This document shows, piece by piece, positions 4,203 through 44,858 of a stretch of 44,858 nucleotides of DNA. The position numbers were made by a program, and so were the translations under genes. The notes under the pieces are model-generated. The model worked only from the letters and a program-made list of their open reading frames with translations, searched no databases and was not told the origin of the DNA. The number at the start of each line of letters is the position of its first letter. Position 1 is the stretch's first letter. Source of the stretch: Candidatus Moraniibacteriota bacterium (GTDB lineage Bacteria; Patescibacteriota; Minisyncoccia; Moranbacterales; UBA9337); NCBI GenBank assembly GCA_036584565.1, contig JAZHDF010000082.1:1-44858 (forward strand), read 5' to 3'.

Positions 4203-4601
4203 TTATCCTGGAGGAAAACACGACATAAAATATTTTTCACCTTTTTTGTTCTCTTTTATCTGAACATAAAATAATTCTCTCTCTTTGGTCATACCGGCAA
4301 ATCTATAAAATACTTCTTTTCCGTTCTCCTTTATTATAGGTTTATTTTTTGAATATTTTATCAATTCGATCGCGGCTTTAAAATATTTAAGCCTTTTCAT
4401 TCTTTCTCTGGGAGACTTTTGAAAGATATGTTTTTTAAAATAATCAAAAAATACTTTTTCTTTTTTAAAATAGGCAGACCTTAAATAAGTTTTTCTTTTA
4501 GTTTTTTTCTCTATTTCATTATACAGGCGAAATGCATTTTTTAACACCTCTCCGTAACTACTACCGGAAATTTTCTTGGATTTCGTCTGATAAGGTATCA
4601 T
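4203..4601 (-). CDS. Uncharacterised small protein, 'HIF-motif' family (paralogue of ORF 42298-42756)
   Basis: 132 aa. It shares collinear motifs with the 152-aa ORF at 42298-42756: HIF, R-x-R-x-KR-[LM]-x-[YF]-[FI]-K, F-x-x-F, [FV][YV][VY]-x-[IR], G-x-K-x-x-M-x-x-F. Confidence 0.5.
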   Translation of the reverse strand: MIPYQTKSKKISGSSYGEVLKNAFRLYNEIEKKTKRKTYLRSAYFKKEKVFFDYFKKHIFQKSPRERMKRLKYFKAAIELIKYSKNKPIIKENGKEVFYRFAGMTKERELFYVQIKENKKGEKYFMSCFPPG

Positions 4602-5005: not shown

Positions 5006-6277
5006 CTAGTTAAAAAAGTTTTTTAAATCAACCAAGAGAAATTTACTGAGAGGTAAAAATATAATATTAATACCATCATTCTCTTGTCGTGACTCCAGAC
5101 TTCGCGTTATCACAAACACTTGATTAGTTTTGAGCTCTATCGCAACATTTCTAATTGTGTCCAGCGCTCCCTTATTGAGTTCATCAAATTTATCAATATA
5201 TTTAGATTCCACCAATACTATATCTTTTTTTTCATTAATAAACACAAAGTCGATTTCTCGTTGATTTTCATAATAAAAATTTACTTTAAAATTTGTACTT
5301 AAAAATTTATACAGAATATTTTCCGCCGCACTTCCCAGATTAAATTTGCCTGATAAATTATGTAACATCCCGGTATCATGCAAATAGAATTTTTTAGCCG
5401 AATATATTTTTTTACTGCGTGAAGTTGAAAATCGCTCTATTTCTTCGACAATAAATGTTTGCTTCAGAAAATTTACATACTCCTTTGCCGTGTCTACTGT
5501 TATTCCAAGAATTTTTCCCAATTTCGTAAAACTTGTCTGGTGTCCGTTTCTGTCAGAAAGAAGCAATAATAAATCACGAATAATATCCGGATTTTTAATG
5601 CCGTGCATATACACGATATCTTTAAAAATAATCGCTTCCAGCAAATCCGTAAAGTAACTGCTATCCTCTTGCAAAATATATTCCGGATATCCGCCCAGTC
5701 TTATGTATTCCTCCAGATATGCGGTATATTTATACCCCTCTGCACTGGAAATATCCACATTCTTAAATTGCAAAAATTCTTCAAAACTCAATGGATCGAT
5801 TTTAAATTTTTCATATCTTCCCGTTAAAAATGGGGTTTTCTGAAAAAGTTCCGTACTGGCGGATCCGGATAAAAAAATCTTGACATTCTCCAAGTCCAAA
5901 AGAGACTTCACTTCCTGCTCCCAATCCTTTAAATATTGAACTTCATCAAAAAACAGAAATATTTTTTCATCCCTATCAAGCAGATGTATCTCCCTAAATT
6001 CATTAACCATTTCCAAAATAGAAACTTTTGCGAGACGAGGATGATCAAGAAGCGCATATAAAATATTTTTTGGCGCTATTTTATCCTCCTTAATCAAATA
6101 TTGAATTAATTGTTTCAACAGAGTTGTCTTTCCCACCCTGCGCGATCCCGTAATTAAAACAGCCCGCTTGTGCTTGAGCGATCTTATAAGTTTGGGTAAA
6201 TATTTCTGTCGATAAATCCCGGAATCAAATTCTTTCTTTTCCCACCAAGGATTAGTAACGAATAATATTTCTTTCAT
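5006..6277 (-). CDS. AAA+ ATPase, COG1373/DUF4143-type
   Basis: 423 aa. Walker A GSRRVGKTT and Walker B FLFFDEVQ, with the N-terminal NPWW motif typical of this orphan ATPase family. Confidence 0.8.
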   Translation of the reverse strand: MKEILFVTNPWWEKKEFDSGIYRQKYLPKLIRSLKHKRAVLITGSRRVGKTTLLKQLIQYLIKEDKIAPKNILYALLDHPRLAKVSILEMVNEFREIHLLDRDEKIFLFFDEVQYLKDWEQEVKSLLDLENVKIFLSGSASTELFQKTPFLTGRYEKFKIDPLSFEEFLQFKNVDISSAEGYKYTAYLEEYIRLGGYPEYILQEDSSYFTDLLEAIIFKDIVYMHGIKNPDIIRDLLLLLSDRNGHQTSFTKLGKILGITVDTAKEYVNFLKQTFIVEEIERFSTSRSKKIYSAKKFYLHDTGMLHNLSGKFNLGSAAENILYKFLSTNFKVNFYYENQREIDFVFINEKKDIVLVESKYIDKFDELNKGALDTIRNVAIELKTNQVFVITRSLESRQENDGINIIFLPLSKFLLVDLKNFFN

Positions 6278-13928: not shown

Positions 13929-15857
<1,929 letters not shown>

Positions 15858-16194: not shown

Positions 16195-17115
16195 TTATTC
16201 CACTGTTACTCGCATCGGCCTGATCACTTTTTCCCCTATTTTATAACCTTTTAAAATAACTTTCTTGATCTTGTTTTTGTACTTTTCCTTTTTCTCGCAC
16301 TCGCCCTTGCTACAACAATTATCCAGCACCGCTTCGCAAAACTTAGTATCAAAATTATCTCCGACTTTTAGATCTATTTCTTCTGCCCCGTTTTCCCTAA
16401 GGACATCTTCCAACTGCTTTTGAATATACATGATTCCCTGCACCCATCCCCCATCTTTTTGATCCTCGGGAATATGCGCTGTGGAAACCTGAAAATTATC
16501 GATGACCGGGATAATTTGCAGAATAAAACTTTCAGCGGCATAACGAATTCTATCTTTTTGACTTTCGGCTTGCATCTTTTTATAATTTTCAAATTCCGCC
16601 AAACTTCTTTTCCAACCCTCCAGAGCCGTTTCTTTTTCCAAATATTTCTTGGCCTCTTTTAAGGTTTCCATCTTTTCTTCTTCAAATCCGTCCCCCGTAT
16701 TCAACTTTTCAATCGCTTCATCAAAACTCAACCATTCATAATCACTATGCTCGCGAGGATTTAATTTAACTTCCACTTCATTACAATAAACAATATAGCG
16801 CAATCCTCTGAATTTACTAACTTTTCCATTTTCGTTTTCAAACTCTGCAAATCTTATTAAATCACCAATACTTATATCCACCAATCCAGTTTCTTCTTTG
16901 ATTTCTCTTTTTAATGTATCCACCACACTTTCCCCTTCTTCAAGCCACCCGCCTGGTAAGTCGTATTTTTTAGCATTTTTTATCCCCTCATCTGCCCGCC
17001 TGAGCAATAAAACCTTTCTTTCCTTATTAAAAACAGCTGCTTTAATAGTAAGTTGGGTATTACAACCTTTTTCTACTTCCATCGTTATTTCTTCTTTTTT
17101 ATTTTCTTTTTGCAT
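16195..17115 (-). CDS. grpE: Nudix hydrolase domain fused to nucleotide exchange factor GrpE
   Basis: A perfect Nudix box GGWLEEGESVVDTLKREIKEETGL lies in the N-terminal ~150 aa. The C-terminal half has GrpE motifs WKRSLAEFENYKK, IIPVIDNFQ, VGDNFDTKFCEAV and KGYKIGEKVIRPMRVTV. It is one uninterrupted 306-aa ORF. Confidence 0.85.
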   Translation of the reverse strand: MQKENKKEEITMEVEKGCNTQLTIKAAVFNKERKVLLLRRADEGIKNAKKYDLPGGWLEEGESVVDTLKREIKEETGLVDISIGDLIRFAEFENENGKVSKFRGLRYIVYCNEVEVKLNPREHSDYEWLSFDEAIEKLNTGDGFEEEKMETLKEAKKYLEKETALEGWKRSLAEFENYKKMQAESQKDRIRYAAESFILQIIPVIDNFQVSTAHIPEDQKDGGWVQGIMYIQKQLEDVLRENGAEEIDLKVGDNFDTKFCEAVLDNCCSKGECEKKEKYKNKIKKVILKGYKIGEKVIRPMRVTVE

Positions 17116-26025: not shown

Positions 26026-26715
26026 TTATCTAACCTCCACTCCGGGACCCATAGTTGAACAAATCACGATTTTGGTTATCAATTTTCCTTTAACAGCTTC
26101 TTGTTTGGATTTTTCCAAAGCCTCGACAAACACCTCCAAATTTTCTTTCAACTGAGCCACTTCAAATGAAGCTCTTCCGATTACTTGATGGACATTGCCG
26201 GTATTGTCATTTTTAAAACTCACTTTTCCCTTCTTAAGCATCTCCACCGCCTCCTTAACCTTGTCGGTTACAGTATCGGTTTTAGGATTGGGCATTAAAC
26301 CTTTCGGTCCCAAAATTTTGGCCACTTGAGCAAGTTTGGGCATCATCTCCGGAGTAGCCACCAAAATATCAAAATTCAACTTTCCTTTCTTGATTTCATC
26401 GATCATTTCCTCTCCCATCACCACATCCGCCTTGGCCTCCTTGGCTTCTTTGGCTTTGGTAGAAGTAATTACCCCGATTCGCTTGCTTTTTCCGGTTCCA
26501 TGAGGAAAAACCACCGAACCTCTGAGCTGCTGGTCGCCTTTTTTGGGATCAATGCCGGTTTTAACATGAACCTCGATCGACTCATCAAATTTGGCCACTT
26601 TATTTTCCTTTACCAGCGCCAAACCCTCTTCGACGGAATAAACTTTTTTCTCGATTTTCTCCGCCACTTCCTTATATTTTTTTCCTCTTCTCATTATTTT
26701 TCGTGGTCCTTGCAT
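26026..26715 (-). CDS. rplA: 50S ribosomal protein L1
   Basis: MRRGKKYKEVAEKIEKKVYSVEEGLALVKE... is typical of L1. The true start may be the ATG at 26694 (M8). Confidence 0.95.
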   Translation of the reverse strand: MQGPRKIMRRGKKYKEVAEKIEKKVYSVEEGLALVKENKVAKFDESIEVHVKTGIDPKKGDQQLRGSVVFPHGTGKSKRIGVITSTKAKEAKEAKADVVMGEEMIDEIKKGKLNFDILVATPEMMPKLAQVAKILGPKGLMPNPKTDTVTDKVKEAVEMLKKGKVSFKNDNTGNVHQVIGRASFEVAQLKENLEVFVEALEKSKQEAVKGKLITKIVICSTMGPGVEVR

Positions 26716-26737
26716 ATTACGTAATTAATTACGTAAT
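26716..26737. promoter_or_regulatory. Perfect 22-bp palindrome ATTACGTAATT/AATTACGTAAT abutting the upstream rplA ATG
   Basis: Seen directly. GGGAG lies immediately 5' of it on the mRNA strand (26740-26744). Confidence 0.4.
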
Positions 26738-26851
26738 ACTCCCACAAATTAAATTGATTATTTTGCTTCTTAAATTCTTAACCTCCCAAATTCCCAACTT
26801 CCCGATCACAATTCGAGTCATTAGCGTAATATTTGCAAATTAGTGTCGTCT

Positions 26852-37982: not shown

Positions 37983-38102
37983 AAAAACAATTCCCACCAT
38001 AACCCTTTTTTGCAAAACAAAAAAGAGTTATTTAATGAGTTCTTAAATAAGTTATTTAGTTGTTTTTTCTATATATGTAGTTCATTTGGTATCTACATAT
38101 CT

Positions 38103-38130
38103 ATTATACATATATAAATAGAAATGTCAA
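38103..38130 (-). promoter_or_regulatory. rpoB promoter TTGACA-N16-TATAAT
   Basis: On the minus strand the -35 is at 38125-38130 and the -10 at 38103-38108. Confidence 0.6.
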
Positions 38131-38204
38131 ATTAGTGTATAAGTCCAATCCATTTTACACTCTTTGAAAAAATTAAAGACATAAACCGCAGGATAAAATC
38201 AGGT

Positions 38205-38522
38205 TTATAAAGGATAAAAAAACCGTCTCTCCGAGGAAAGACGGGCTGATATATTTGAATTTAAGTCGATATTGCCCATACCAAGATTGAATCCAAGTTC
38301 ACCGGCATTATTATACCAATATCTGGCATCTCCGCTGATGCCGGCCGATGCCAAGTCCGGACGCATAAAGGCCGCCCACCAGGTACAATTACCATATGCA
38401 CCACATTGAAAATAACTTGTTGTGGATGTATATCCGTAACATTTCAAGTCACCGGAGAAAACAGTATCTCCATTCAGAATCCCGACTATACTTATCACCA
38501 ACCAAATAAATATCGTTTTCAT
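38205..38522 (-). pseudogene. Truncated CHAP-domain (peptidoglycan amidase/peptidase) protein
   Basis: Signal/TM segment, then the catalytic-Cys context GNCTWWAAFMRPDL typical of the CHAP N-terminal half. The ORF ends before the expected His/Asp half. A GGAGG Shine-Dalgarno is present, so it may still be expressed. Confidence 0.45.
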
Positions 38523-38634
38523 TTTTTACGAACCTCCACATTTGTATTGACAAAGAGCTAAAAAATTCTCAAGAAGCAATTCAGCTGCTTCATAGTTTTA
38601 GCAAAAATATTACTAAAACAAAAATAAGCCGAAT

Positions 38635-39354
38635 TTAGAAAGCTTTACTCAATATCATATTCTTTGCAATCTCATAAAAAATTTCTTTTTTTGCTAAATT
38701 ATCTTCAGTTGTCCGAATCGAAAAGAAAATTTTGTTTTTCTCATTAACTACAAAATAAGTTTGCACCTTTTGATAATTTGAATCCGCAAAAATACAATTT
38801 GCAATAATAATGGGTAAGTCTGTTAAATCAGAAGAATATTCACATATTGCTTGTAAATGATTCTCTCTTATTCCGCGAAGTCCGGACTCAATGCTTTGTT
38901 GCGGAGTACCAGCATCGGATGTTGCCGCTCCGCTAAAAGAAATAACCACCTCATTTTTATTTTCAAATTCTAAAGGATAATTACCTCCGGTCCCCACCCC
39001 TATATCCGCATATTTATCTATATCAAAATTAGGATTATTTGTAATCATTCGTGAATGATATCCCGTTTTTTCAGGATCCGATTCCAACCAATACCACTCT
39101 TTTGGAAATTTGATTGTAAAAAATTCCGTTTCTTTTGTTTGCCAATGATCAACATTCATGTCGACATCGACAACAAATTCTTGTTTTTTTTCTTGATTTA
39201 GATGTTGCGATTCTTCTGTAGCGACATCGTTTTCTGCTTTTTCTTTTAAAATAATTTCATTACTTCCCTCTTGATTTTTTGCAACCCAAAAACCGATTCC
39301 CGCTATCGCCGAAATTAACATTATAGAAATTACAATAATTGATTTATTTTTCAT
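38635..39354 (-). CDS. Membrane-anchored extracytoplasmic protein, unknown function
   Basis: 239 aa with an N-terminal TM anchor (IIVISIMLISAIAGIGFWVA). Confidence 0.45.
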   Translation of the reverse strand: MKNKSIIVISIMLISAIAGIGFWVAKNQEGSNEIILKEKAENDVATEESQHLNQEKKQEFVVDVDMNVDHWQTKETEFFTIKFPKEWYWLESDPEKTGYHSRMITNNPNFDIDKYADIGVGTGGNYPLEFENKNEVVISFSGAATSDAGTPQQSIESGLRGIRENHLQAICEYSSDLTDLPIIIANCIFADSNYQKVQTYFVVNEKNKIFFSIRTTEDNLAKKEIFYEIAKNMILSKAF

Positions 39355-39466
39355 CGAATTTGATACAGTTTTACTCTTTCAGGATAACATTGATTATTTT
39401 TTTACGTCAAACAAATATTTATAGATACAACAAATTAGTCATTTTAAGCAGTTTAAACTATCCTCT

Positions 39467-40990
39467 TTAAATCAATTCATCCAATCTGACCAGCTCGTCT
39501 TTTAAAACCAGCGTGGCCTTGCAATCATCCTCGTTATAATCCAAAATTCTCTGCAAATCCTCGGGCTTTTCGGTCTCCAAATATTGATTGAACCATTGAA
39601 TCGACAAAGCGCCCGAAGGAGTTTTGTCCCGCCAACTGAAGCCCAGATATTGGGCGATTTCTTTGATGGAATAACTGCCCAAAGGCCAATCCGTATCGGC
39701 TAAGACTATTTTATACAAATCAATCACCTTGGGATTACTGAAAAATGCGCCCAATTCCTCAATCGAGATAACCTCCGGATATTTCTTTTGCATTTTGAAA
39801 TAGGTGTTTTTTTCGTGAGGAGAATAATAATAAACCGCAAAATCATCCTCGGGCAATGAGCGGATGTAATCCCAAAATCTTTGCCAAGCATCCCGCTCGG
39901 CTTCTCGAGAATCGTCCCGGGCGGTAAAATCCAAAAACCACTCCCCCTGCGGACTCCGCTCGTACACTCCGTGGAGATAAACAAACTCCCGTGTCGGATC
40001 ATCCTCGATATCAAAAAACAATTCATATTTCACTTCGGGTAAATTCAATTTTCTGTACAAAACCGCTCCCTTGCCGTTTTCCAAAATATCCGCCCGGGCA
40101 ATAATTTTTTCCAGTGTCTTTTCGCCCACTCCTTTGAGGAAATTTTTATCTTGCTTTTTTCTCTCCAGCACTTCCCGCACATCCAACTCGAGCATTTCTC
40201 CGACTTTTTCGATATACAAATCTTGGTTGATAATATCTCGTTTGGAGCGCCCCAGATAAAAAATATTGGTCAAGTCTTTATTTTCTTTGCACCATTTTTT
40301 GCAACTCTTGTACCACGGACACAGTTTGCAACTGCCCGCCATGGCCGGTTTGTTTTGAACTTTATTATTGATTAAATTTTCCACTTGTTCCTTGGTCTCC
40401 TCATAAAATTCCCAGAAAGTTTGCTTATTTATTTTTCCCAGAGGCTGGTCTAAAAAATATTCTTTCTCCGTACCGCTGGCATCAATCACAAAACTCCGCT
40501 TGGATTTGCCAAAACCCAAAATATTCAAAAGCTCAATATATAGACAAAGCTGAACGGCATAAGTTTTCTTCGGCTTGCCGTTTCCGTTTTCCAAATCCTC
40601 TTCATCGTTAAAATCGCTTGCTCCGGCAAATCCCATACCCGATTTGATCTCAATCGGCGCATAACTCCCGTCCGGCATCCGACGCAAAAGATCGGGAATA
40701 CCTTTAAGATTGCCATACACCAACACGCCCTGATAAATCAAAGGCACGCCCTCGCGCATGGCTTTGATTGTCTCGACAAATCTGTCTTGCAATTTTCCCT
40801 CGCGCAAATCCAAATATTCGCCCATCTTGGCCACCACTTCTTCTTCGTGAGCCACTCCTCTGTTCCAAAGCAATTCCACGAAGGGATTTTTTTCTTCTAT
40901 TTTTTCTTCCTTCGGACCGTAAACATCCCGCCACACCTTGTGCGGACATTGGATATAATCGTAAAGTTTTGAACCGGTGATTGTTTTCAT
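39467..40990 (-). CDS. TM0106-family RecB-like nuclease (Cas4-like PD-(D/E)xK N-domain plus RNase-H-like C-domain)
   Basis: 507 aa. N-terminus KLYDYIQCPHKVWRD, then GIPDLL...IEIKSG, a Cys cluster CKLCPWYKSC, GVGEKTLEKI, and C-terminal ELFFDIEDDP...YLHG. Confidence 0.7.
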   Translation of the reverse strand: MKTITGSKLYDYIQCPHKVWRDVYGPKEEKIEEKNPFVELLWNRGVAHEEEVVAKMGEYLDLREGKLQDRFVETIKAMREGVPLIYQGVLVYGNLKGIPDLLRRMPDGSYAPIEIKSGMGFAGASDFNDEEDLENGNGKPKKTYAVQLCLYIELLNILGFGKSKRSFVIDASGTEKEYFLDQPLGKINKQTFWEFYEETKEQVENLINNKVQNKPAMAGSCKLCPWYKSCKKWCKENKDLTNIFYLGRSKRDIINQDLYIEKVGEMLELDVREVLERKKQDKNFLKGVGEKTLEKIIARADILENGKGAVLYRKLNLPEVKYELFFDIEDDPTREFVYLHGVYERSPQGEWFLDFTARDDSREAERDAWQRFWDYIRSLPEDDFAVYYYSPHEKNTYFKMQKKYPEVISIEELGAFFSNPKVIDLYKIVLADTDWPLGSYSIKEIAQYLGFSWRDKTPSGALSIQWFNQYLETEKPEDLQRILDYNEDDCKATLVLKDELVRLDELI

Positions 40991-40991
40991 T
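40963..40991. repeat. Nuclease 5' end, duplicated at 42131-42159
   Basis: 27 of 29 identical. Both differences are synonymous in codons 1-10. Confidence 0.75.
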
Positions 40992-40995
40992 GGGT

Positions 40996-41610
40996 TTATT
41001 TTTTAAAATTATTCAGATCATTTAAAGCAATTTCGACTGTTCCGGAGGAAACTGAAAATAAAGAAGCGATATGACCAGCTAGATATGAGTTTAATGTTTT
41101 TTCATCAAAAACAGAAATGTCCCGCTTCTTACTCAATTTTTCTCTTAAAATCTTTTCTCTTATTTTGGAAAGTTCTTCTCTTGGCACCAGAAAGTAATTG
41201 GCAAATTTGTTGGCTTGAGTCTCAAGATATGAATATTCATCCGCATCAATTTCCTCCATAAATTCATAAATTTCATCCATACTGGAAATATTTAATTTTT
41301 CATAAAAAACCCTATGCAAAACCAAATGCCCCAATTCATGCGCCAAAGAGAATCTGAATCTGCTCGTATTGTTTTCATAATTTTTCAGATCGACATAGAT
41401 AGATTTAAAATCAGATGCTATCTGAGCATCCAATCCGCATTGACTCATCAAATCCGGTATCGGAATTATTTCTATTCCCATTTTTAACTCCACTATCTCC
41501 TCTATTTCAACAGGAATTCCTTTTTTCCAATATTTCAGCCTCAAACTATCCGCTTTATTTTTTATTTCTCCGTTGCTGATAAAAGCAATTTTTATGTTTT
41601 TATATTTCAT
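40996..41610 (-). CDS. ImmA/IrrE-family (M78) zinc metallopeptidase
   Basis: HExxH in FSLAHELGHLVLH, with a downstream E in QANKFANYFLVPREEL. ATG at 41610, or TTG at 41619 as in the track. Confidence 0.78.
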   Translation of the reverse strand: MKYKNIKIAFISNGEIKNKADSLRLKYWKKGIPVEIEEIVELKMGIEIIPIPDLMSQCGLDAQIASDFKSIYVDLKNYENNTSRFRFSLAHELGHLVLHRVFYEKLNISSMDEIYEFMEEIDADEYSYLETQANKFANYFLVPREELSKIREKILREKLSKKRDISVFDEKTLNSYLAGHIASLFSVSSGTVEIALNDLNNFKK

Positions 41611-41621
41611 TTGTCTCAATA

Positions 41622-42005
41622 TTAGGAGTTTTTTATGAAATTGATTATTTTATCCATGTCTTCCTTGGTTGGTTTTTTATTTTTTAACGTTCGGAAAAAG
41701 GCCGGTAAGTTAGCCACCAGTTCTCTCTCTTCCATAATCTCAGAGGGAATTATCCCTTGGGCCACATTGGCATTGTATATAAAATTATCGAATTCTTTGG
41801 TACCGCTCTTTAATCCGAGAGTCTTTGCCCATAAATTCAATATTTTTTTATCGGCCGGCGGCGATATTTTTCCTCTTTCAATTTTGCTAAAATTACTCGG
41901 ATCATATCCGACCCTACGACACATTTCTCTTAGCGTAAATTCTTTTTTGATTCGGAGTTCATACAAAAGTCTTCCGAATTTTTTTAAATTATCCCCCTTA
42001 TTCAT
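41622..42005 (-). CDS. XRE-family helix-turn-helix transcriptional regulator
   Basis: HTH_3 pattern LRIKKEFTLREMCRRVGYDPSNFSKIERGKISPP. Confidence 0.8.
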   Translation of the reverse strand: MNKGDNLKKFGRLLYELRIKKEFTLREMCRRVGYDPSNFSKIERGKISPPADKKILNLWAKTLGLKSGTKEFDNFIYNANVAQGIIPSEIMEERELVANLPAFFRTLKNKKPTKEDMDKIINFIKNS

Positions 42006-42026
42006 ATTTTTTTGCTTATTTAAATT

Positions 42027-42066
42027 AAAATATCCTTGTGGTAATATATTACCACAAGGATATTTT
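42027..42066. promoter_or_regulatory. Perfect 40-bp palindrome (20-bp arms), candidate XRE operator
   Basis: AAAATATCCTTGTGGTAATA/TATTACCACAAGGATATTTT, 21 nt upstream of the xre ATG. It overlaps the spacer, the -10 and the predicted transcription start of the promoter. Confidence 0.6.
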
Positions 42067-42073
42067 TTGTCAA
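42046..42073 (-). promoter_or_regulatory. xre-immA-nuclease promoter TTGACA-N16-TAATAT
   Basis: On the minus strand the -35 is at 42068-42073 and the -10 at 42046-42051, in the palindrome centre. Confidence 0.55.
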
Positions 42074-42122
42074 ATACCGCAAATATTTAGCCACCCCGTC
42101 AAGCTTTATTTGGATATTAAAT

Positions 42123-42159
42123 TTAACAATAAAGTTTTGAACCAGTAATTGTTTTCATT
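42123..42159 (-). pseudogene. Relic 5' end of the RecB-like nuclease gene (MKTITGSKLYC*)
   Basis: The first 10 codons encode the same peptide as ORF 39467-40990 and are followed by a stop. Confidence 0.7.
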
Positions 42160-42172
42160 AAGTTTTTACGCA

Positions 42173-42201
42173 ATTATACATACTATTGATTTTATTGTCA
42201 T
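42173..42201 (-). promoter_or_regulatory. Probable ancestral nuclease promoter ATGACA-N17-TATAAT
   Basis: On the minus strand the -10 is at 42173-42178 and the -35 at 42196-42201, 15 nt upstream of the relic ATG. Confidence 0.4.
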
Positions 42202-42297
42202 TTTATGCTATATTTTAGCTAAGCTTTACAGTGTAAAGCTGTCGGTATTTCTGGAAGGTTGTTGACCCAAAAATAACAGCTTTCCCCCGCAAGGGTT

Positions 42298-42756
42298 TCA
42301 CAATTTGTTTTTCAACTCCTGAAGTGTTATTTCTATACACTTCTTTTTTTGTTTTAAATACATTTTATTATGGTTTCTTCCGAAATCAAAAAATGTTCCC
42401 ATCTGCAACTTACCACTTCCAATGCGAGATCGCAAATAAACAACACATTCTAAATCATAACAAAAAATAGCAAAAGTTCCTCGATCATCTTCATACATCA
42501 ATTCTGTATTAAAATTTCCCGCCAATATTTCTTTTATAAATAACATCCTCTTTGCTCTCCTAGTACTGAACCTATATTCTCCACCCTTGCCTGGCTCAAA
42601 AAATATGTGATTAAAATCTTTTTCAATAAAAGAAATTGGGATATCTCCAATAGAAAAATCTTTCCCTATAAAAGTACTATTATAGAAATCCCGATATTGA
42701 TTCTCATTTTCTAATATTATTATTTCAGCTTTTTTCATCAATTTCCTTCCAAACAA
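42298..42756 (-). CDS. Uncharacterised small protein, 'HIF-motif' family, partner of DUF3800
   Basis: 152 aa (146 aa from the ATG at 42738). It overlaps the DUF3800 stop by 14-32 nt. It shares collinear motifs with ORF 4203-4601. Confidence 0.55.
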   Translation of the reverse strand: MFGRKLMKKAEIIILENENQYRDFYNSTFIGKDFSIGDIPISFIEKDFNHIFFEPGKGGEYRFSTRRAKRMLFIKEILAGNFNTELMYEDDRGTFAIFCYDLECVVYLRSRIGSGKLQMGTFFDFGRNHNKMYLKQKKKCIEITLQELKNKL

Positions 42757-43636
42757 AAATGTTAAATTTATCCTCGCTCAAAAAAGATGTCTGACACAAA
42801 TCTTTTCTAGCAATTTTTTCCTCAAAATATTTAATCATTTCATACTTAAAGCTATTTTTTAAATCGTAGTCATTGCAAGCAAAACCAATCATGCCTGTAA
42901 AAAAATCACTTAATTGAATCAATAAATTATTACCAGAATCATACGCCTGAAGATGCTTTATTCTGCAATCCTTTTTATTTTTGAAAATGTGAAATTCCAA
43001 AAAATGATTCAGGGCATTCAAAATATTTCTATCTCTTGAAGGTTTTTTATCTAGAAATATATAGTATTCGTTTTGGCTCGCTAGCTTGGCCTTAATCATT
43101 ATATAATAGAACTTATAGAATGCCGTCTCCAGGCTTCCATTATGATATTCTTTAAACTTAACTTTGCGCTTGTCTACTATTATTCCACGAAAATTCAAAT
43201 GTTCGTTCGCCAAAAAATAATCGAATAATTCCTTATATAGATCGGAATATTTTCTTCCAACCTTCGACCATTTCAATTCGTATTTGAAATCATGCTTTGA
43301 GAAAATTTCCCTTATTTCATTTACAACCCTATCTTTTTTTGGACGCGACAAAAACAATGCTCCAATAACCATTTTATTTGAGTCTGTATTTTCAACTCTA
43401 CTTTCGTCACAATATATATTGTATGATTTTCGATTCATATTTTTTAATTTTGAATATCTTTTACGATTTTTTCTATTGTTTTTTCTCTTTTTTTGTGATA
43501 AAATGTAATCAGATATGAATCTTATTCCATCCAAAAAATCATCTAAACTCAAACTATCTTGGACAATATTAGCTGTGCTATCTTTTGAATTTTGCTTGAC
43601 AATCACATTAGCTTCACTTAAAATGCCTACAGGCAT
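42725..43636 (-). CDS. DUF3800-family protein
   Basis: N-terminal core motif NIYCDESRVENTD and C-terminal LIQLSDFFTGMIG (DES and QxxD signatures). The core starts at M67 (ATG 43438). The 66-aa N-extension in the track ORF is doubtful. Confidence 0.7.
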   Translation of the reverse strand: MPVGILSEANVIVKQNSKDSTANIVQDSLSLDDFLDGIRFISDYILSQKKRKNNRKNRKRYSKLKNMNRKSYNIYCDESRVENTDSNKMVIGALFLSRPKKDRVVNEIREIFSKHDFKYELKWSKVGRKYSDLYKELFDYFLANEHLNFRGIIVDKRKVKFKEYHNGSLETAFYKFYYIMIKAKLASQNEYYIFLDKKPSRDRNILNALNHFLEFHIFKNKKDCRIKHLQAYDSGNNLLIQLSDFFTGMIGFACNDYDLKNSFKYEMIKYFEEKIARKDLCQTSFLSEDKFNIFVWKEIDEKS

Positions 43637-43651
43637 TTTAAGTGAAGCTAA
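43608..43651. promoter_or_regulatory. 21-bp-arm perfect inverted repeat (2-nt spacer) spanning the upstream DUF3800 ATG
   Basis: TTAGCTTCACTTAAAATGCCT-ac-AGGCATTTTAAGTGAAGCTAA. Confidence 0.45.
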
Positions 43652-43756
43652 CTAGTTATAATAAAAAATATCACCGTTCAAACAAACATATTTATTGTTT
43701 GTTTTTTATTTTAATATTAATACTATAATAAACAAATAATATTCACTTAAAAAAAT

Positions 43757-44110
43757 TTAATGTTTATTCTTATTGACTAACTTATATTTTATTTTCCCAT
43801 TTGGGTACTGAAAAATTTTTCCATTTTGTATAATTGGAACTATAACAACTCCTCTTGGTCTACGCCATTTCCCTATTCTTTTAATTTTATCCATGAATTC
43901 AACCATAAATTCGTTTGCTTCTTCTGGACATTTCCTTGCTAGTCTTTTAAAATTATCAGAATAATGATAAAAAACTCTTTCAAATGCTATATGTTTAGAG
44001 TTTGAGAGATTTAGATGTTGGGGCAACTGATGCCTTAAAAATGTTTCAAACTTCCTACTAATTTTATCTATATCTATTTTAGACTTTATTTTATCTTTTG
44101 ATTGACTCAT
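43757..44110 (-). CDS. Hypothetical protein
   Basis: 117-aa basic ORF with no recognisable motifs. Confidence 0.4.
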   Translation of the reverse strand: MSQSKDKIKSKIDIDKISRKFETFLRHQLPQHLNLSNSKHIAFERVFYHYSDNFKRLARKCPEEANEFMVEFMDKIKRIGKWRRPRGVVIVPIIQNGKIFQYPNGKIKYKLVNKNKH

Positions 44111-44121
44111 AAAAAATATTT

Positions 44122-44787
44122 TTATAAATTATTTTTAATATATTCCTTATACTCTCCAAACAAAAACTCCATTCTTTCTGCTTCGGATTTGAATGTTTGT
44201 TTGCCGTAAGCCCTATCTACTGCCCTATCCAGATTTTGATGGGCTTTGACAAGGTCCGCTGGCATTGTGAGTGGATCATACAGATCAGCCAAGCTGGCGC
44301 CTTTGTCATTCCGTGCTTGATCCGGAATCTCATGAGATCCTGAATCAAGTTCAGGATGACAATGCATATATTTTTCTCTAACATCTAGGACTTCTTGCGC
44401 ATATTTTTCAACTGCTTTGATTTTTTCTTCACTCGGATTTTCTGGCCAAGGAAAATTATTATAAACAATGTCTTTTGAATAACGAAAATCACTTTTTAAT
44501 CTACCACAAACATGACGCACCCATGTCATATGCATTTCACTTTCCAAAACTCCAAAATGATATAATGTTGCGTTTGGAATACTCTGCATTGTATCGCTAA
44601 CTATATAATTTTTATCAAAAAATCCCATCGGAATATATTTTCTATTTTCAGATGTAGTTCTAGGAATAACAATAAAACTTTCTGGATTATTTATATCCCT
44701 AAATATTGTTGGTTTTTTGGCTAAATCTCTAGCACCTTTATCTTTGCTAGACAACCTAAATTCTTTTACTAATTTTATTTTTTCCAT
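44122..44787 (-). pseudogene. C-terminal fragment of an MmeI-like (type IIL/IIG) restriction-modification / DNA methyltransferase protein
   Basis: YIPMGFFDKNYIVSDTMQSIPNATLYHFGVLESEMHMTWVRHVCGRLKSDFRYSKDIVYNNFPWP and SLADLYDPLTMPADLVKAHQNLDRAVDRAY are hallmarks of the MmeI-family C-terminus. The ~700-aa N-terminal nuclease/methylase part is absent. Confidence 0.7.
44304..44361. mobile_element. Palindromic MITE-like element (TGTCAT...ATGACA) inserted in frame in the MmeI-like fragment
   Basis: TGTCATTCCGTGCTTGATCCGGAATCTC-at-GAGATCCTGAATCAAGTTCAGGATGACA has imperfect inverted arms. It encodes CHPELDSGSHEIPDQARND between conserved REKY and SLADLYDP. Its head is the same as that of the intergenic modules. 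Confidence 0.65.
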
Positions 44788-44805
44788 AATAACAGGAATA
44801 TTTTT

Positions 44806-44858
44806 AAGGCTCTAGACCATCAAACTAATTAATATTTATGTAAAATTCTAATTAAATC
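44806..44858. repeat. Right arm of the perfect 53-bp inverted repeat
   Basis: Reverse complement of 2-54. Confidence 0.9.

Follow-up and report, generated by a model that had tools for sequence, protein, structure and literature searches.

A palindrome-bearing xre-immA repressor-protease cassette inserted before a TM0106-family nuclease gene in a Candidatus Moraniibacteriota bacterium

Three co-directional genes encoding an XRE-family repressor, an ImmA/IrrE-type peptidase and a TM0106-family nuclease were identified on the minus strand of the window (i.e., the entire 44,858-nt stretch of DNA that was analysed), with the coordinates, close spacing and features that the initial annotation had given them:

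41622 to 42005, minus strand: xre, a 127-aa XRE-family repressor with an HTH at residues 10–65 and the LPAFFRT motif in its conserved C-terminal domain
40996 to 41610, minus strand: immA, a 204-aa ImmA/IrrE-type (M78, COG2856) zinc metallopeptidase with HELGH and E130
39467 to 40990, minus strand: TM0106-family nuclease of 507 aa, with matches to TIGR03491 and PF13482, a weak Cas4 match and the family's invariant residues

The gap between xre and immA is 11 nt, or 2 nt if translation of immA begins at an alternative TTG codon (position 41619) to give 207 residues, and the gap between immA and the nuclease gene is 5 nt. The ATG start, which gives 204 residues, is the likelier one since homologues of ImmA all begin MKYKN. 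As had also been claimed, the operon contains no integrase or conjugation genes, and it has no excisionase gene; upstream of it lie PDC-M04A/B and an MmeI-like gene in a defence-island setting. The locus lies in a variable defence hotspot adjoining rpoB.

Profile searches upheld the assignment of each protein (HTH profiles, PF06114 and TIGR03491/PF13482, respectively). Thus, the 127-aa product of xre matched HTH_31 at 7.2e-8, HTH_19 at 4.8e-7 and HTH_3 at 1.5e-4, as well as the PADLOC capH profile at 2.6e-6 over residues 8–125, and its best PDB sequence match was a 129-aa transcriptional regulator (E = 0.005). Orthologues of XRE, which were 50–91% identical, occurred upstream of immA in every case. 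The LPAFFRT motif conserved in the C-terminal domain contains a hydrophobic-Arg pair, F104-R105, which by analogy with the F82-R83 cleavage site of CapH (10.1101/2022.04.27.489752; 10.64898/2026.05.16.725639) is a candidate site for cleavage by ImmA.

The predicted peptidase matched Peptidase_M78 (PF06114) at 3.8e-11, and residues H91, E92, H95 and E130 were invariant in 24 homologues. Among PADLOC profiles it matched capP (1.5e-14) and RmrA (4.5e-15), and the best PDB folds for its AlphaFold model (pLDDT 89.7) were CapP (7t5t), which was the closest, IrrE (3dti) and PprI (8sln). The CapP profile covered ImmA only at profile positions 4–120 of 242, and a GAF domain is absent from this 204-aa protein, the model of which is all-helical after residue 144. 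A cysteine switch is also absent, no Cys being found in residues 96–129, between HExxH and the third zinc ligand. Thus, with ImmA lacking both of the features through which CapP and IrrE sense ssDNA, the GAF domain and the cysteine switch, the inducing signal cannot be read from homology.

The nuclease matched TIGR03491 at 6.2e-72 over residues 5–498 of 507 (243 bits, the curated cut-off being 97.45). Cas4 models matched its N-terminal part (residues 4–231) at 1e-7 to 1e-9, and PF13482 (RNase_H_2) its C-terminal part (residues 324–500) at 6.5e-25. The architecture is that of a Cas4-like PD-(D/E)xK domain with a four-cysteine cluster, a helical linker and an RNase-H-fold DEDD-like 3'-5' exonuclease domain. 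Residues invariant in 19 homologues were C15, C221, C224, C230 and F326-D-I-E-x-D-P332, together with D100, K116, Q147, Y151, D327, E329 and D488/D489. In the structural model (pLDDT 86.5), the N-terminal domain resembled Cas4, AdnA and EXO5 in fold and the C-terminal domain PolB-exo, ERI1, MrfB and DnaQ. A PDB sequence search with the nuclease found nothing, and a literature search on TM0106 gave only unrelated matches; to our knowledge, as in the literature searched, no member of the TIGR03491 family has been characterised.

The palindrome 5' of xre was confirmed as perfect (20+20), with 21 nt separating it from the xre ATG, and so was the promoter geometry originally described, with the -10 box ending at the palindrome centre:

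42027 to 42066, no strand: putative XRE operator, a perfect 20+20 palindrome with the core TGTGGTA-N6-TACCACA at 42037–42056
42046 to 42073, minus strand: xre promoter (P_xre), TTGACA-N16-TAATAT with a TG extension, -35 box at 42073..42068 and -10 box at 42051..42046, 10/12 matches

Within the operator, the -10 box falls across the left half-site and the spacer. With arms of 20 nt, this palindrome exceeds all others in the window, the largest of which has 12-nt arms, and first-order Markov simulation (200 runs) gave maximum arms that averaged 7.2 nt and never exceeded 13. Its proposed role as an operator is well supported, the core lying over the -10 box and being conserved 5' of xre family-wide (L005, L081, L084, L086, L169, L170, L171, L090 and others), and XRE is predicted to bind it. 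Among 72 xre upstream regions, the motif was exact in 16 and present with three or fewer mismatches in 29. Variants of the operator co-varied (TGTTGTA half-sites, N7 spacing), the TTGACA -35 box was always adjacent, and all relatives examined carried TTGACA or TTGACG followed by a -10 box within the operator.

Exact core sites numbered 19 in 257 loci, and all 19 were upstream of xre. Cassette-less nuclease genes had no operator by the same exact search, and in the 44.9-kb window, searched at up to three mismatches, the only other match had three, which is the chance level. An operator regulon thus found no support in the window and the 257 loci, where core sites occur only upstream of xre. An RNA element was considered and rejected, as an Rfam scan of 38000–44858 returned no matches and the 5' UTR of the P_xre transcript is unstructured.

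The conserved unit comprises two genes, xre (127 aa) and immA (~200 aa), with their own operator. The former was directly upstream of the latter at 72 of 88 immA loci, most of the remainder being cut by contig ends, and the pair is found widely across Patescibacteria (CPR), with Moranbacteria, Parcubacteria, Kuenenbacteria and Saccharimonadales among the groups that carry it. It often lies among core genes (ribosomal protein operons, the L10/L12-rpoB region). This breadth across CPR groups and the frequent setting amid core genes, together with the 129-aa regulator matched by XRE and the resemblance of the ImmA fold to IrrE and PprI, would suit a global SOS-like CPR regulator, i.e., a counterpart of DdrO/IrrE with a dispersed damage regulon and the nuclease as a repair enzyme controlled in cis. 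We consider such a regulator quite improbable, however, in view of the operator searches (no site except 5' of xre in 257 loci, no second site above chance in the window and none at cassette-less nuclease genes), the lack in ImmA of the GAF domain that IrrE uses for ssDNA sensing, and the upstream neighbours of the nuclease, which are defence and R-M genes rather than repair genes. The CPR-wide family and its defined operator, TGTGGTA-N6-TACCACA, are nonetheless usable for whole-genome regulon searches.

Linkage of the pair to the nuclease is rare. At none of the 86 ImmA-retrieved loci (L081–L088, L089–L168 apart from L090, L170, L171) was the nuclease directly 3' of immA; neighbours at these loci included PEMT with MscL, Fic, hypothetical proteins and convergent genes, or there was no neighbour at all. 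Of 80 nuclease loci taken at species level, 79 lacked the pair, the sole carrier being L005, and it was also missing from all four further close relatives (L254–L257). A conserved, dedicated three-gene system, as first envisaged, is therefore not what the comparison revealed: linkage does recur, in L005 and L169, and is both rare among nuclease loci and insertion-derived in the window. The full arrangement was thus found in the window and in two Moranbacteria-like relatives. In L005, the immA stop and the nuclease start overlap as ATGA, and in L169 the order is xre, immA, a 97-aa ORF and the nuclease, with overlaps or 5-nt gaps. The 97-aa ORF between immA and the nuclease had no Pfam or PDB match and may be WYL-like. 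In the window, no convincing terminator was found on the coding strand at the immA-nuclease junction, and co-transcription of the nuclease with xre and immA is plausible from this layout. A weak promoter-like site in the 3' end of immA (41036..41008, 9/12 matches) could drive the nuclease independently.

The nuclease family, ~60% identical across phyla, usually lies 2–20 nt 3' of a defence gene, such as one for R-M or a helicase. In relatives, the slot 5' of the nuclease is variously filled (SMC-like, AAA_15/21, DUF3800, small ORFs, R-M), with MmeI often further upstream, and the closest relative, L007, in which the nuclease is 88% identical, has no cassette. The nuclease is almost absent from viral contigs, and relatives of ImmA on such contigs are at most ~41% identical, for which reasons an origin as prophage or phage cargo was rejected.

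The history of the locus could be read from the sequence around the cassette, which includes the following features:

40995 to 42101, minus strand: inserted xre-immA cassette, from promoter/operator through the immA stop, with 84% nucleotide identity to L081
42092 to 42165, minus strand: degenerate second copy of the nuclease 5' end, which reads MKTITGSKLYC* and aligns to the nuclease starts of L001, L002 and L003
42173 to 42201, minus strand: ancestral nuclease promoter, ATGACA-N17-TATAAT, at 11/12 the best match of the region

The 1.1-kb cassette is 84% identical over 1112 bp to positions 4505–5616 of L081, where it occupies another genomic site, and its boundaries coincide with a 74-nt direct repeat (42092–42165 compared with 40924–40997, 74% identity). 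An empty site was seen in L001, L002 and L003; thus, window positions 42223..42111 are 87% identical in L002, and 79% in L003, to the sequence that abuts the nuclease start. The L081 cassette shares the left junction of the window, inside nuclease-like sequence. Linkage in the window visibly arose by insertion, the cassette lying between the functional nuclease gene and the decayed 74-nt copy of its 5' end. Precise excision, i.e., Campbell-type gain and loss via the 74-nt repeats, was rejected, the upstream region of L007 being unrelated and not an empty site of the L002/L003 type. We prefer, as a route that is not proven, a single homologous crossover within the nuclease gene combined with one illegitimate junction. 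In a transcript from the stranded ancestral promoter, the palindrome would fold to a hairpin of -29.8 kcal/mol with a U-rich tail after it, whereas transcription from P_xre begins within the palindrome, so that this hairpin does not form. This arrangement fits a present-day role of P_xre as the effective promoter. The locus clearly records in its sequence how a regulatory cassette was recombined before a gene, both the ancestral promoter and the decaying 5' stub being still in place.

On balance we lean towards capture of the nuclease by an autoregulated XRE/ImmA derepression switch in a small Moranbacteria-like lineage. An XRE dimer on TGTGGTA-N6-TACCACA would cover the -10 box of the sole strong promoter before the three genes and so keep basal expression of xre, immA and the co-transcribed nuclease low. 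A stress or infection signal would activate ImmA, XRE would be cut in its conserved C-terminal domain, and the freed operator would allow induction of the whole operon, nuclease included. Judged from gene position, gating of the nuclease by XRE/ImmA is probable: with the cassette directly before it, whatever signal induces the pair probably induces the nuclease too. The enzyme itself, as a defence-island-associated cellular gene product, would combine a Cas4-like Fe-S 5' nuclease with a DEDD-type 3'-5' exonuclease. Since it is presumably expressed without the switch elsewhere, the cassette would add conditional control and not complete an obligate three-part system.

Incidental juxtaposition was weighed against this capture, with the pair as one among many genes that can replace each other in a variable hotspot flanked by an MmeI-type R-M gene on one side and the nuclease on the other. 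The pair would then be self-contained, either as a selfish TA-like element or as a stand-alone stress regulator with itself or genes in trans as targets, and any read-through into the nuclease would be without selected function. Several observations fit such an account, including the heterogeneity or absence of co-directional genes downstream of the pair, the differing genes in the slot 5' of the nuclease, the lack of a cassette in L007 and the weak promoter-like site just before the nuclease. Nor are nuclease-linked cassettes monophyletic with respect to unlinked ones, the window ImmA being 85% identical to that of the unlinked L081 compared with 50% and 66% for the linked L005 and L169. Despite this divergence of the cassettes, however, the tight order, with genes overlapping or no more than 5 nt apart, is shared by the window, L005 and L169. 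The nuclease-derived left junction kept by the L081 cassette further indicates that linkage is older than these lineages and was retained, and in L005 a stop/start overlap has evolved and a terminator lies upstream of P_xre, which leaves the nuclease there with no other evident promoter. Incidental juxtaposition therefore seems to us rather unlikely, although far from negligible.

A three-component TA or abortive infection system, in which XRE would hold a nuclease toxin in check (transcriptionally or directly) until its release by ImmA killed the infected cell, recalls the predicted COG2856-Xre-toxin architecture (PMC2701414), and two observations are in keeping with it: RmrA profiles of RosmerTA match ImmA through their peptidase portion, and the context is that of a defence island (PDC-M04A/B and the MmeI-like gene upstream). 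The nuclease, however, is intact and highly conserved without the pair at at least 83 of 85 examined loci; a gene so widespread without the pair is not a toxin that needs an XRE/ImmA antitoxin, and the toxin reading was rejected on this ground. Its distribution in genomes already suggests that cells tolerate the nuclease alone. PADLOC toxin/effector models, moreover, do not match the nuclease beyond weak Cas4, and RmrA is one fused polypeptide of ~380 aa, in contrast with the separate genes of this operon, where the RmrA match is confined to the peptidase portion. Accordingly, we regard such a system as very improbable.

Apart from the switch, the TM0106 family is a candidate defence accessory, being a downstream neighbour of R-M and defence genes. 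A broader proposal, which we consider unlikely enough to be put forward only tentatively, is that the nuclease is both an unrecognised R-M/defence-island accessory, inducible where linked to XRE/ImmA, and a homologous anchor. The accessory part would fit the ~60% cross-phylum identity, near-absence from viral contigs and position 2–20 nt 3' of defence genes. As for the anchor, the conserved nuclease coding sequence could mediate exchange of defence or regulatory cassettes among CPR lineages by homology-facilitated illegitimate recombination, of which the xre-immA insertion with its 74-nt duplication would be an example caught in the act. If this proposal were true, XRE/ImmA would make the nuclease damage- or infection-inducible in carrier lineages.

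CPR bacteria have not yet been grown alone, and their regulation of stress and phage responses is almost uncharted. If gating is real, the locus would show, in a simple natural form, how these bacteria place a single DNA nuclease under a repressor that a protease cleaves. Among known systems, ICEBs1 has the order immR-immA-int, i.e., repressor, protease and cargo, the transcript from the repressor's autoregulated promoter extending into the third gene. ImmR/ImmA of B. subtilis ICEBs1 and the immunity modules of phi105-type phages resemble the window operon in pairing an XRE repressor with a downstream COG2856/M78 protease that is small, single-domain, similar in size and devoid of a GAF domain, and in a mechanism of derepression via repressor cleavage. 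The window operon differs in its cargo, a TM0106 nuclease instead of an integrase, in the lack of a divergent element promoter and in its CPR host.

In Deinococcus, the DdrO regulon is dispersed and irrE and ddrO are non-adjacent. IrrE, moreover, has an ssDNA-binding GAF-like domain, whereas here ImmA lacks one and the one operator found is before the pair itself. DdrO is an XRE repressor of ~129 aa, and a COG2856 protease cuts it within the C-terminal domain used for dimerisation; DdrO/IrrE act through palindromic operators on DNA-processing genes in the radiation-desiccation response of Deinococcus (PMC6868357, PMC10904395). CapH/CapP-type pairs regulate defence operons, CBASS included; the C-terminal half of CapP consists of an HTH and a GAF domain, the latter forming an ssDNA-binding groove, and the cysteine-switch loop is not present in all CapP homologues (10.1101/2022.04.27.489752; 10.64898/2026.05.16.725639). 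The window pair is like CapH/CapP in joining XRE and M78 proteins beside defence-type genes, in the matches of both proteins to the PADLOC capH and capP profiles and in the conserved hydrophobic-Arg motif of the repressor C-terminal domain. In contrast with CapP, ImmA has only 204 aa, no GAF domain and no Cys between HExxH and the third zinc ligand, and while capH-capP is divergent from the operon that it regulates, the cargo here is co-directional and downstream. The CapH/CapP system in the strict sense, marked by the GAF domain, the cysteine-switch loop and divergent transcription, is thus distinct.

An XRE gene and a COG2856 protease gene with a third 'effector' gene were predicted as a system in 2009 (Makarova, Wolf & Koonin, PMC2701414). 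Like the window operon, these predicted TA systems and RosmerTA bring together HTH and zinc protease functions with a third gene of nuclease type, in cassettes that are mobile and associated with islands. The toxins predicted in 2009, however, were PIN or RelE RNases, as opposed to a large DNA nuclease that normally occurs without the pair and so shows no dependence on it. RmrA of RosmerTA is a single HTH-peptidase fusion of ~370–400 aa, whereas HTH and peptidase are separate here; RmrA profiles match ImmA in the peptidase part only (e.g., positions 129–258 of 380), and PADLOC profiles gave no RmrT-like match at the locus. The nuclease likewise differs from known enzymes in combination rather than in parts. 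Thus, its N-terminal domain shares the PD-(D/E)xK fold and the C...CxxCxxxxxC cluster of Cas4, AddB-AdnA nuclease domains and EXO5, and its C-terminal domain the RNase-H fold and conserved acidic residues of DEDD exonucleases, but here the two are fused in one polypeptide without cas genes or a helicase partner. The initial annotation had been aware of no described system of such composition, which appears to hold for the cargo and not for the principle, given the 2009 prediction of XRE, protease and effector and the published CapH/CapP pairs. With its HTH repressor, M78 HExxH and Glu, adjacent co-conserved genes and palindromic operator, the window pair most probably belongs with the XRE + COG2856/M78 switches, a principle already known, of which only the TM0106 nuclease as cargo appears to be undescribed.

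Three tightly spaced genes, with gaps of 11 nt between xre and immA and 5 nt between immA and the nuclease gene, were found together with a promoter on the minus strand of the window:

42073..42046, minus strand: xre promoter (P_xre), TTGACA-N16-TAATAT with a TG extension, the end of its -10 box at the dyad centre of a palindrome
42005..41622, minus strand: xre, 127 aa
41610..40996, minus strand: immA, 204 aa
40990..39467, minus strand: nuclease gene, 507 aa

Translation of immA likely begins at the ATG (204 aa) and not at a TTG at 41619, since MKYKN begins all homologues. XRE matched the profiles HTH_31, HTH_19 and HTH_3, ImmA matched Peptidase_M78 (PF06114, 3.8e-11), and the nuclease scored 243 bits against TIGR03491 (TM0106 family, cut-off 97), matched PF13482 RNase_H_2 over aa 324-500 and weakly matched Cas4 models over aa 4-231; the profile check of the three assignments was thereby positive for HTH_3, PF06114, TIGR03491 and PF13482 alike. 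Residues H91, E92, H95 and E130 were invariant in an alignment of 24 ImmA sequences, as were C15, C221, C224, C230, D100, K116, Q147, Y151 and F326-D-I-E-x-D-P, including the motifs cited in the initial annotation, in an alignment of 19 nucleases. The nearest folds to the AlphaFold model of ImmA (pLDDT 89.7) were CapP (7t5t), IrrE (3dti) and PprI (8sln). In the model of the nuclease (pLDDT 86.5), the N-terminal half resembled Cas4, AdnA and EXO5 and the C-terminal half resembled family-B polymerase exonuclease domains, ERI1, MrfB and DnaQ.

The palindrome, a perfect 20+20 repeat at 42027-42066, is located 5' of xre, 21 nt from the ATG, and no other in the window is as long; the longest arm obtained in 200 Markov simulations was 13 nt, as opposed to 20. 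The runner-up (12+12 nt, 26715-26738) was noted at the end of an ORF at 26026-26715. Genes, palindrome and promoter, as described in the initial annotation, were borne out in full by coordinates, profiles and alignments. A shared layout was seen 5' of xre in the window, in L005 (a species-level nuclease locus), in L081, L084, L086, L170 and L171 (retrieved through ImmA), in the homologous loci L090 and L169, and in others, with TGTGGTA-N6-TACCACA placed 11-13 nt past a TTGACA (or TTGACG) -35 box and the -10 hexamer (TAATAT, TAAGAT, TAAAAT or TATTAT) made up of the last bases of the left half-site plus spacer bases. This motif was exact in 16 of 72 xre upstream regions and present with at most 3 mismatches in 29 of 72, and many further regions carried paired half-site variants (TGTTGTA...TACAACA) or a 7-nt spacer. 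All 19 exact core sites in the 257 loci were upstream of xre. Together, these sites form a strong phylogenetic footprint for predicted autorepression by XRE. Only the 7+7 core of the operator is conserved; the 20+20 extension is specific to the lineage of the window and nearly kept in L081. The lone other operator-like site in the window (5720-5739) was weak, with 3 mismatches, at chance level, and inside the gene for an AAA_14/DUF4143/nSTAND3-like ATPase (423 aa, 5006-6277, minus strand).

Homologues of ImmA numbered about 310, all of about 200 aa, and those with taxonomic names were Patescibacteria. An XRE orthologue (116-127 aa) was encoded directly upstream of immA in 72 of 88 ImmA-retrieved loci, often amid core genes, for instance those of ribosomal protein operons or of the L10/L12-rpoB region. 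The genes after immA were heterogeneous in these loci: PEMT and MscL in L081-L083, a convergent iPGM gene in L084, two hypothetical proteins in L086, Fic after a 316-nt gap in L170, a 116-aa ORF in L171 and, in the metagenome set, frequently no co-directional gene at all. L081 belongs to assembly GCA_000990885.1 and L086 to GCA_001303135.1. Gene order thus indicates that the conserved unit is the two-gene xre-immA pair.

The nuclease family, with more than 1,800 homologues and approximately 60% identity across phyla, was practically absent from viral contigs. The xre-immA pair was upstream of the nuclease in 1 of 80 species-level loci (L005) and was not found at any of four further close relatives (L254-L257). 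In most of the species-level loci the upstream neighbour was co-directional with a gap of just 2-20 nt, and these neighbours were enriched in genes for restriction-modification and other types of defence. Pfam domains tallied among 77 upstream neighbours included N6_Mtase (8), ResIII (8), Eco57I (6), Methylase_S (4), AAA_12 (4), MTES_1575 (3), GIY-YIG (3), MmeI_Mtase (3), Type ISP (2) and SLFN helicase (2), and PADLOC labelled mad2 (10), MkoA/C (4), Hhe (3) and PglX (3) as well as type I, II, IIG and III restriction-modification components. No such enrichment was seen among downstream neighbours in the same 80 loci. The nuclease behaves like a gene that closes diverse defence operons, or like the constant border of a variable hotspot.

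In the clade of the window, an MmeI-type gene was located farther upstream, and the genes separating it from the nuclease varied: an SMC-like gene in L257, an AAA_15/21 gene in L255, a 199-aa ORF followed by xre-immA and a 97-aa ORF in L169, and DUF3800/PDC-M04A+B followed by xre-immA in the window. This region, directly upstream of rpoB, is a variable defence hotspot. The DUF3800 protein (303 aa) of the window and its overlapping 152-aa partner (42298-43636, minus strand, immediately upstream of the cassette) matched PDC-M04A (1e-56) and PDC-M04B (6e-12), a candidate defence pair in PADLOC. The MmeI-like type IIG gene of the window (44122-44787, minus strand) encodes TRD and C-terminal domains only (profile 713-910/912) and looks truncated or frameshifted, with an in-frame stop ahead of the window end; MmeI-type genes were intact at the equivalent position in L169, L255 and L257. 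Small ORFs (97-112 aa) set 3-5 nt ahead of the nuclease start (65 nt in L008) comprised one BLAST family in L006 (3702-3995), L169 (5623-5916, between immA and the nuclease gene) and L257 (3202-3495), a second in L009 (167-487) and L255 (3177-3497), and one ORF alone in L008 (3597-3935). Pfam and PDB sequence searches gave no match for these ORFs, the pattern of which looks like a putative small beta-barrel (WYL-like) domain. Elsewhere in the window, a gene adjoining DnaK (13929-15857) encodes what looks like an unusual fusion (306 aa, 16195-17115, minus strand) of an N-terminal NUDIX domain (aa 22-139) and a C-terminal GrpE domain (aa 145-305).

The proposed reading of the three genes as a protease-gated nuclease switch was supported in part, but not as a conserved, dedicated three-gene system. 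The order xre-immA-nuclease recurred in L005 and, with the 97-aa ORF in third place, in L169, but was absent from 79 of the 80 species-level nuclease loci and from L254-L257. In L005, the stop codon of immA and the ATG of the nuclease gene overlap, with a terminator located closely 5' of P_xre; in L169, synteny with the window extends as far as MmeI. In L090 the nuclease was two genes upstream of the pair. Linkage is a minority arrangement: among the approximately 13 loci of the subclade with nucleases at least 72% identical to that of the window it was seen in 3, and in the family in about 1%. Nuclease-linked cassettes were not each other's closest relatives: identity of the window ImmA was 85% with unlinked L081 as opposed to 66% with linked L169 and 50% with linked L005, and the ImmA of L169 was 78% identical to that of unlinked L171. 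Either linkage is old in the Moranbacteria-like clade of the window and was repeatedly lost or relocated, or it arose more than once.

For the window, the origin of the linkage was indicated by a 74-nt direct repeat: the 5' end of the nuclease gene (40924-40997) has a 74%-identical counterpart just upstream of P_xre (42092-42165), which reads MKTITGSKLYC* on the minus strand and is decayed past approximately 30 nt. Behind this stub a second promoter was stranded:

42201..42173, minus strand: native (ancestral) nuclease promoter, ATGACA-N17-TATAAT, upstream of P_xre

The segment containing stub and native promoter (42223..42092, to 42235 in the multiple alignment) aligned with sequence abutting and entering the nuclease gene in L002 (87%), L003 (79%) and L001, three relatives that show the empty site. 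Between the repeats, 42101..40995 was 84% identical over 1112 bp to the cassette of L081, which is at a different site without a nuclease. The left flank of that cassette (4480-4520) retains AGAGTGTGGCGGGATG, which corresponds to nuclease codons ~18-23 and shares its register with the junction in the window. These alignments indicate that the linkage in the window is an insertion and, given the shared nuclease-derived left junction, that both cassettes go back to a single insertion in the 5' region of a nuclease gene; the L081 copy later lost its nuclease neighbour, which implies a nuclease-linked ancestor. In the simplest model, an xre-immA-nuclease segment acquired from a relative would have been joined by a single crossover within the conserved nuclease gene and, near nt 70 of the copy already resident, by a single illegitimate junction. 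In L007, the closest relative, two copies of a ~30-nt intergenic element, aaaagtaatacgaga[c/g][t/c]acggccgtaaataa, were noted at 1430-1540 upstream of a cassette-less nuclease. The final ~17 nt before its ATG (TTTAAATAAACCAAATG) resemble the immA-stop/nuclease junction of the window, which hints at past cassette deletion.

Transcripts from the two promoters are predicted to differ. In RNA from the native promoter (42010-42080, minus strand), the palindrome would form an 18-bp hairpin (-29.8 kcal/mol, z = -9.3), and this read-through hairpin is followed by U-rich UUUUAAUUU, whereas the P_xre transcript begins within the palindrome and forms no hairpin. Because of this difference, the palindrome, besides its role as operator, may insulate the operon from upstream transcription or act as a terminator. 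Both features fit the best-supported reading, an XRE/ImmA switch in which XRE would repress P_xre via the operator, a signal would lead ImmA to inactivate XRE, and the nuclease, being co-transcribed with the pair, would be induced together with it; gene position is the sole indication of functional gating of the nuclease. In CapP and IrrE the ssDNA-sensing groove lies between the peptidase and GAF domains, and CapP has a cysteine switch. The ImmA of the window has neither, so the inducing signal is not deducible by homology; this protein resembles a minimal ImmA type that is extended at its C-terminus by a short helical segment. In the C-terminal domain of XRE an LPAFFRT motif was strongly conserved, and by analogy with CapH, which is cleaved at F82-R83, F104-R105 is a candidate cleavage site.

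At the sequence level, the predicted switch carries the defining features of the ImmR/ImmA, DdrO/IrrE and CapH/CapP class, to which it would belong. Unlike CapH/CapP, the window pair lacks three features specific to that system, namely a GAF domain, a cysteine switch and divergent orientation. The window matches the gene order of ICEBs1, immR-immA-int, with a nuclease instead of the integrase. A prediction from 2009 placed a third 'effector' gene beside COG2856-Xre (PMC2701414), and published work describes defence operons under XRE and COG2856-type pairs (10.1101/2022.04.27.489752). What appears new here is a TM0106 nuclease as cargo, a CPR-wide xre-immA family with a defined operator, and a visible insertion scar.
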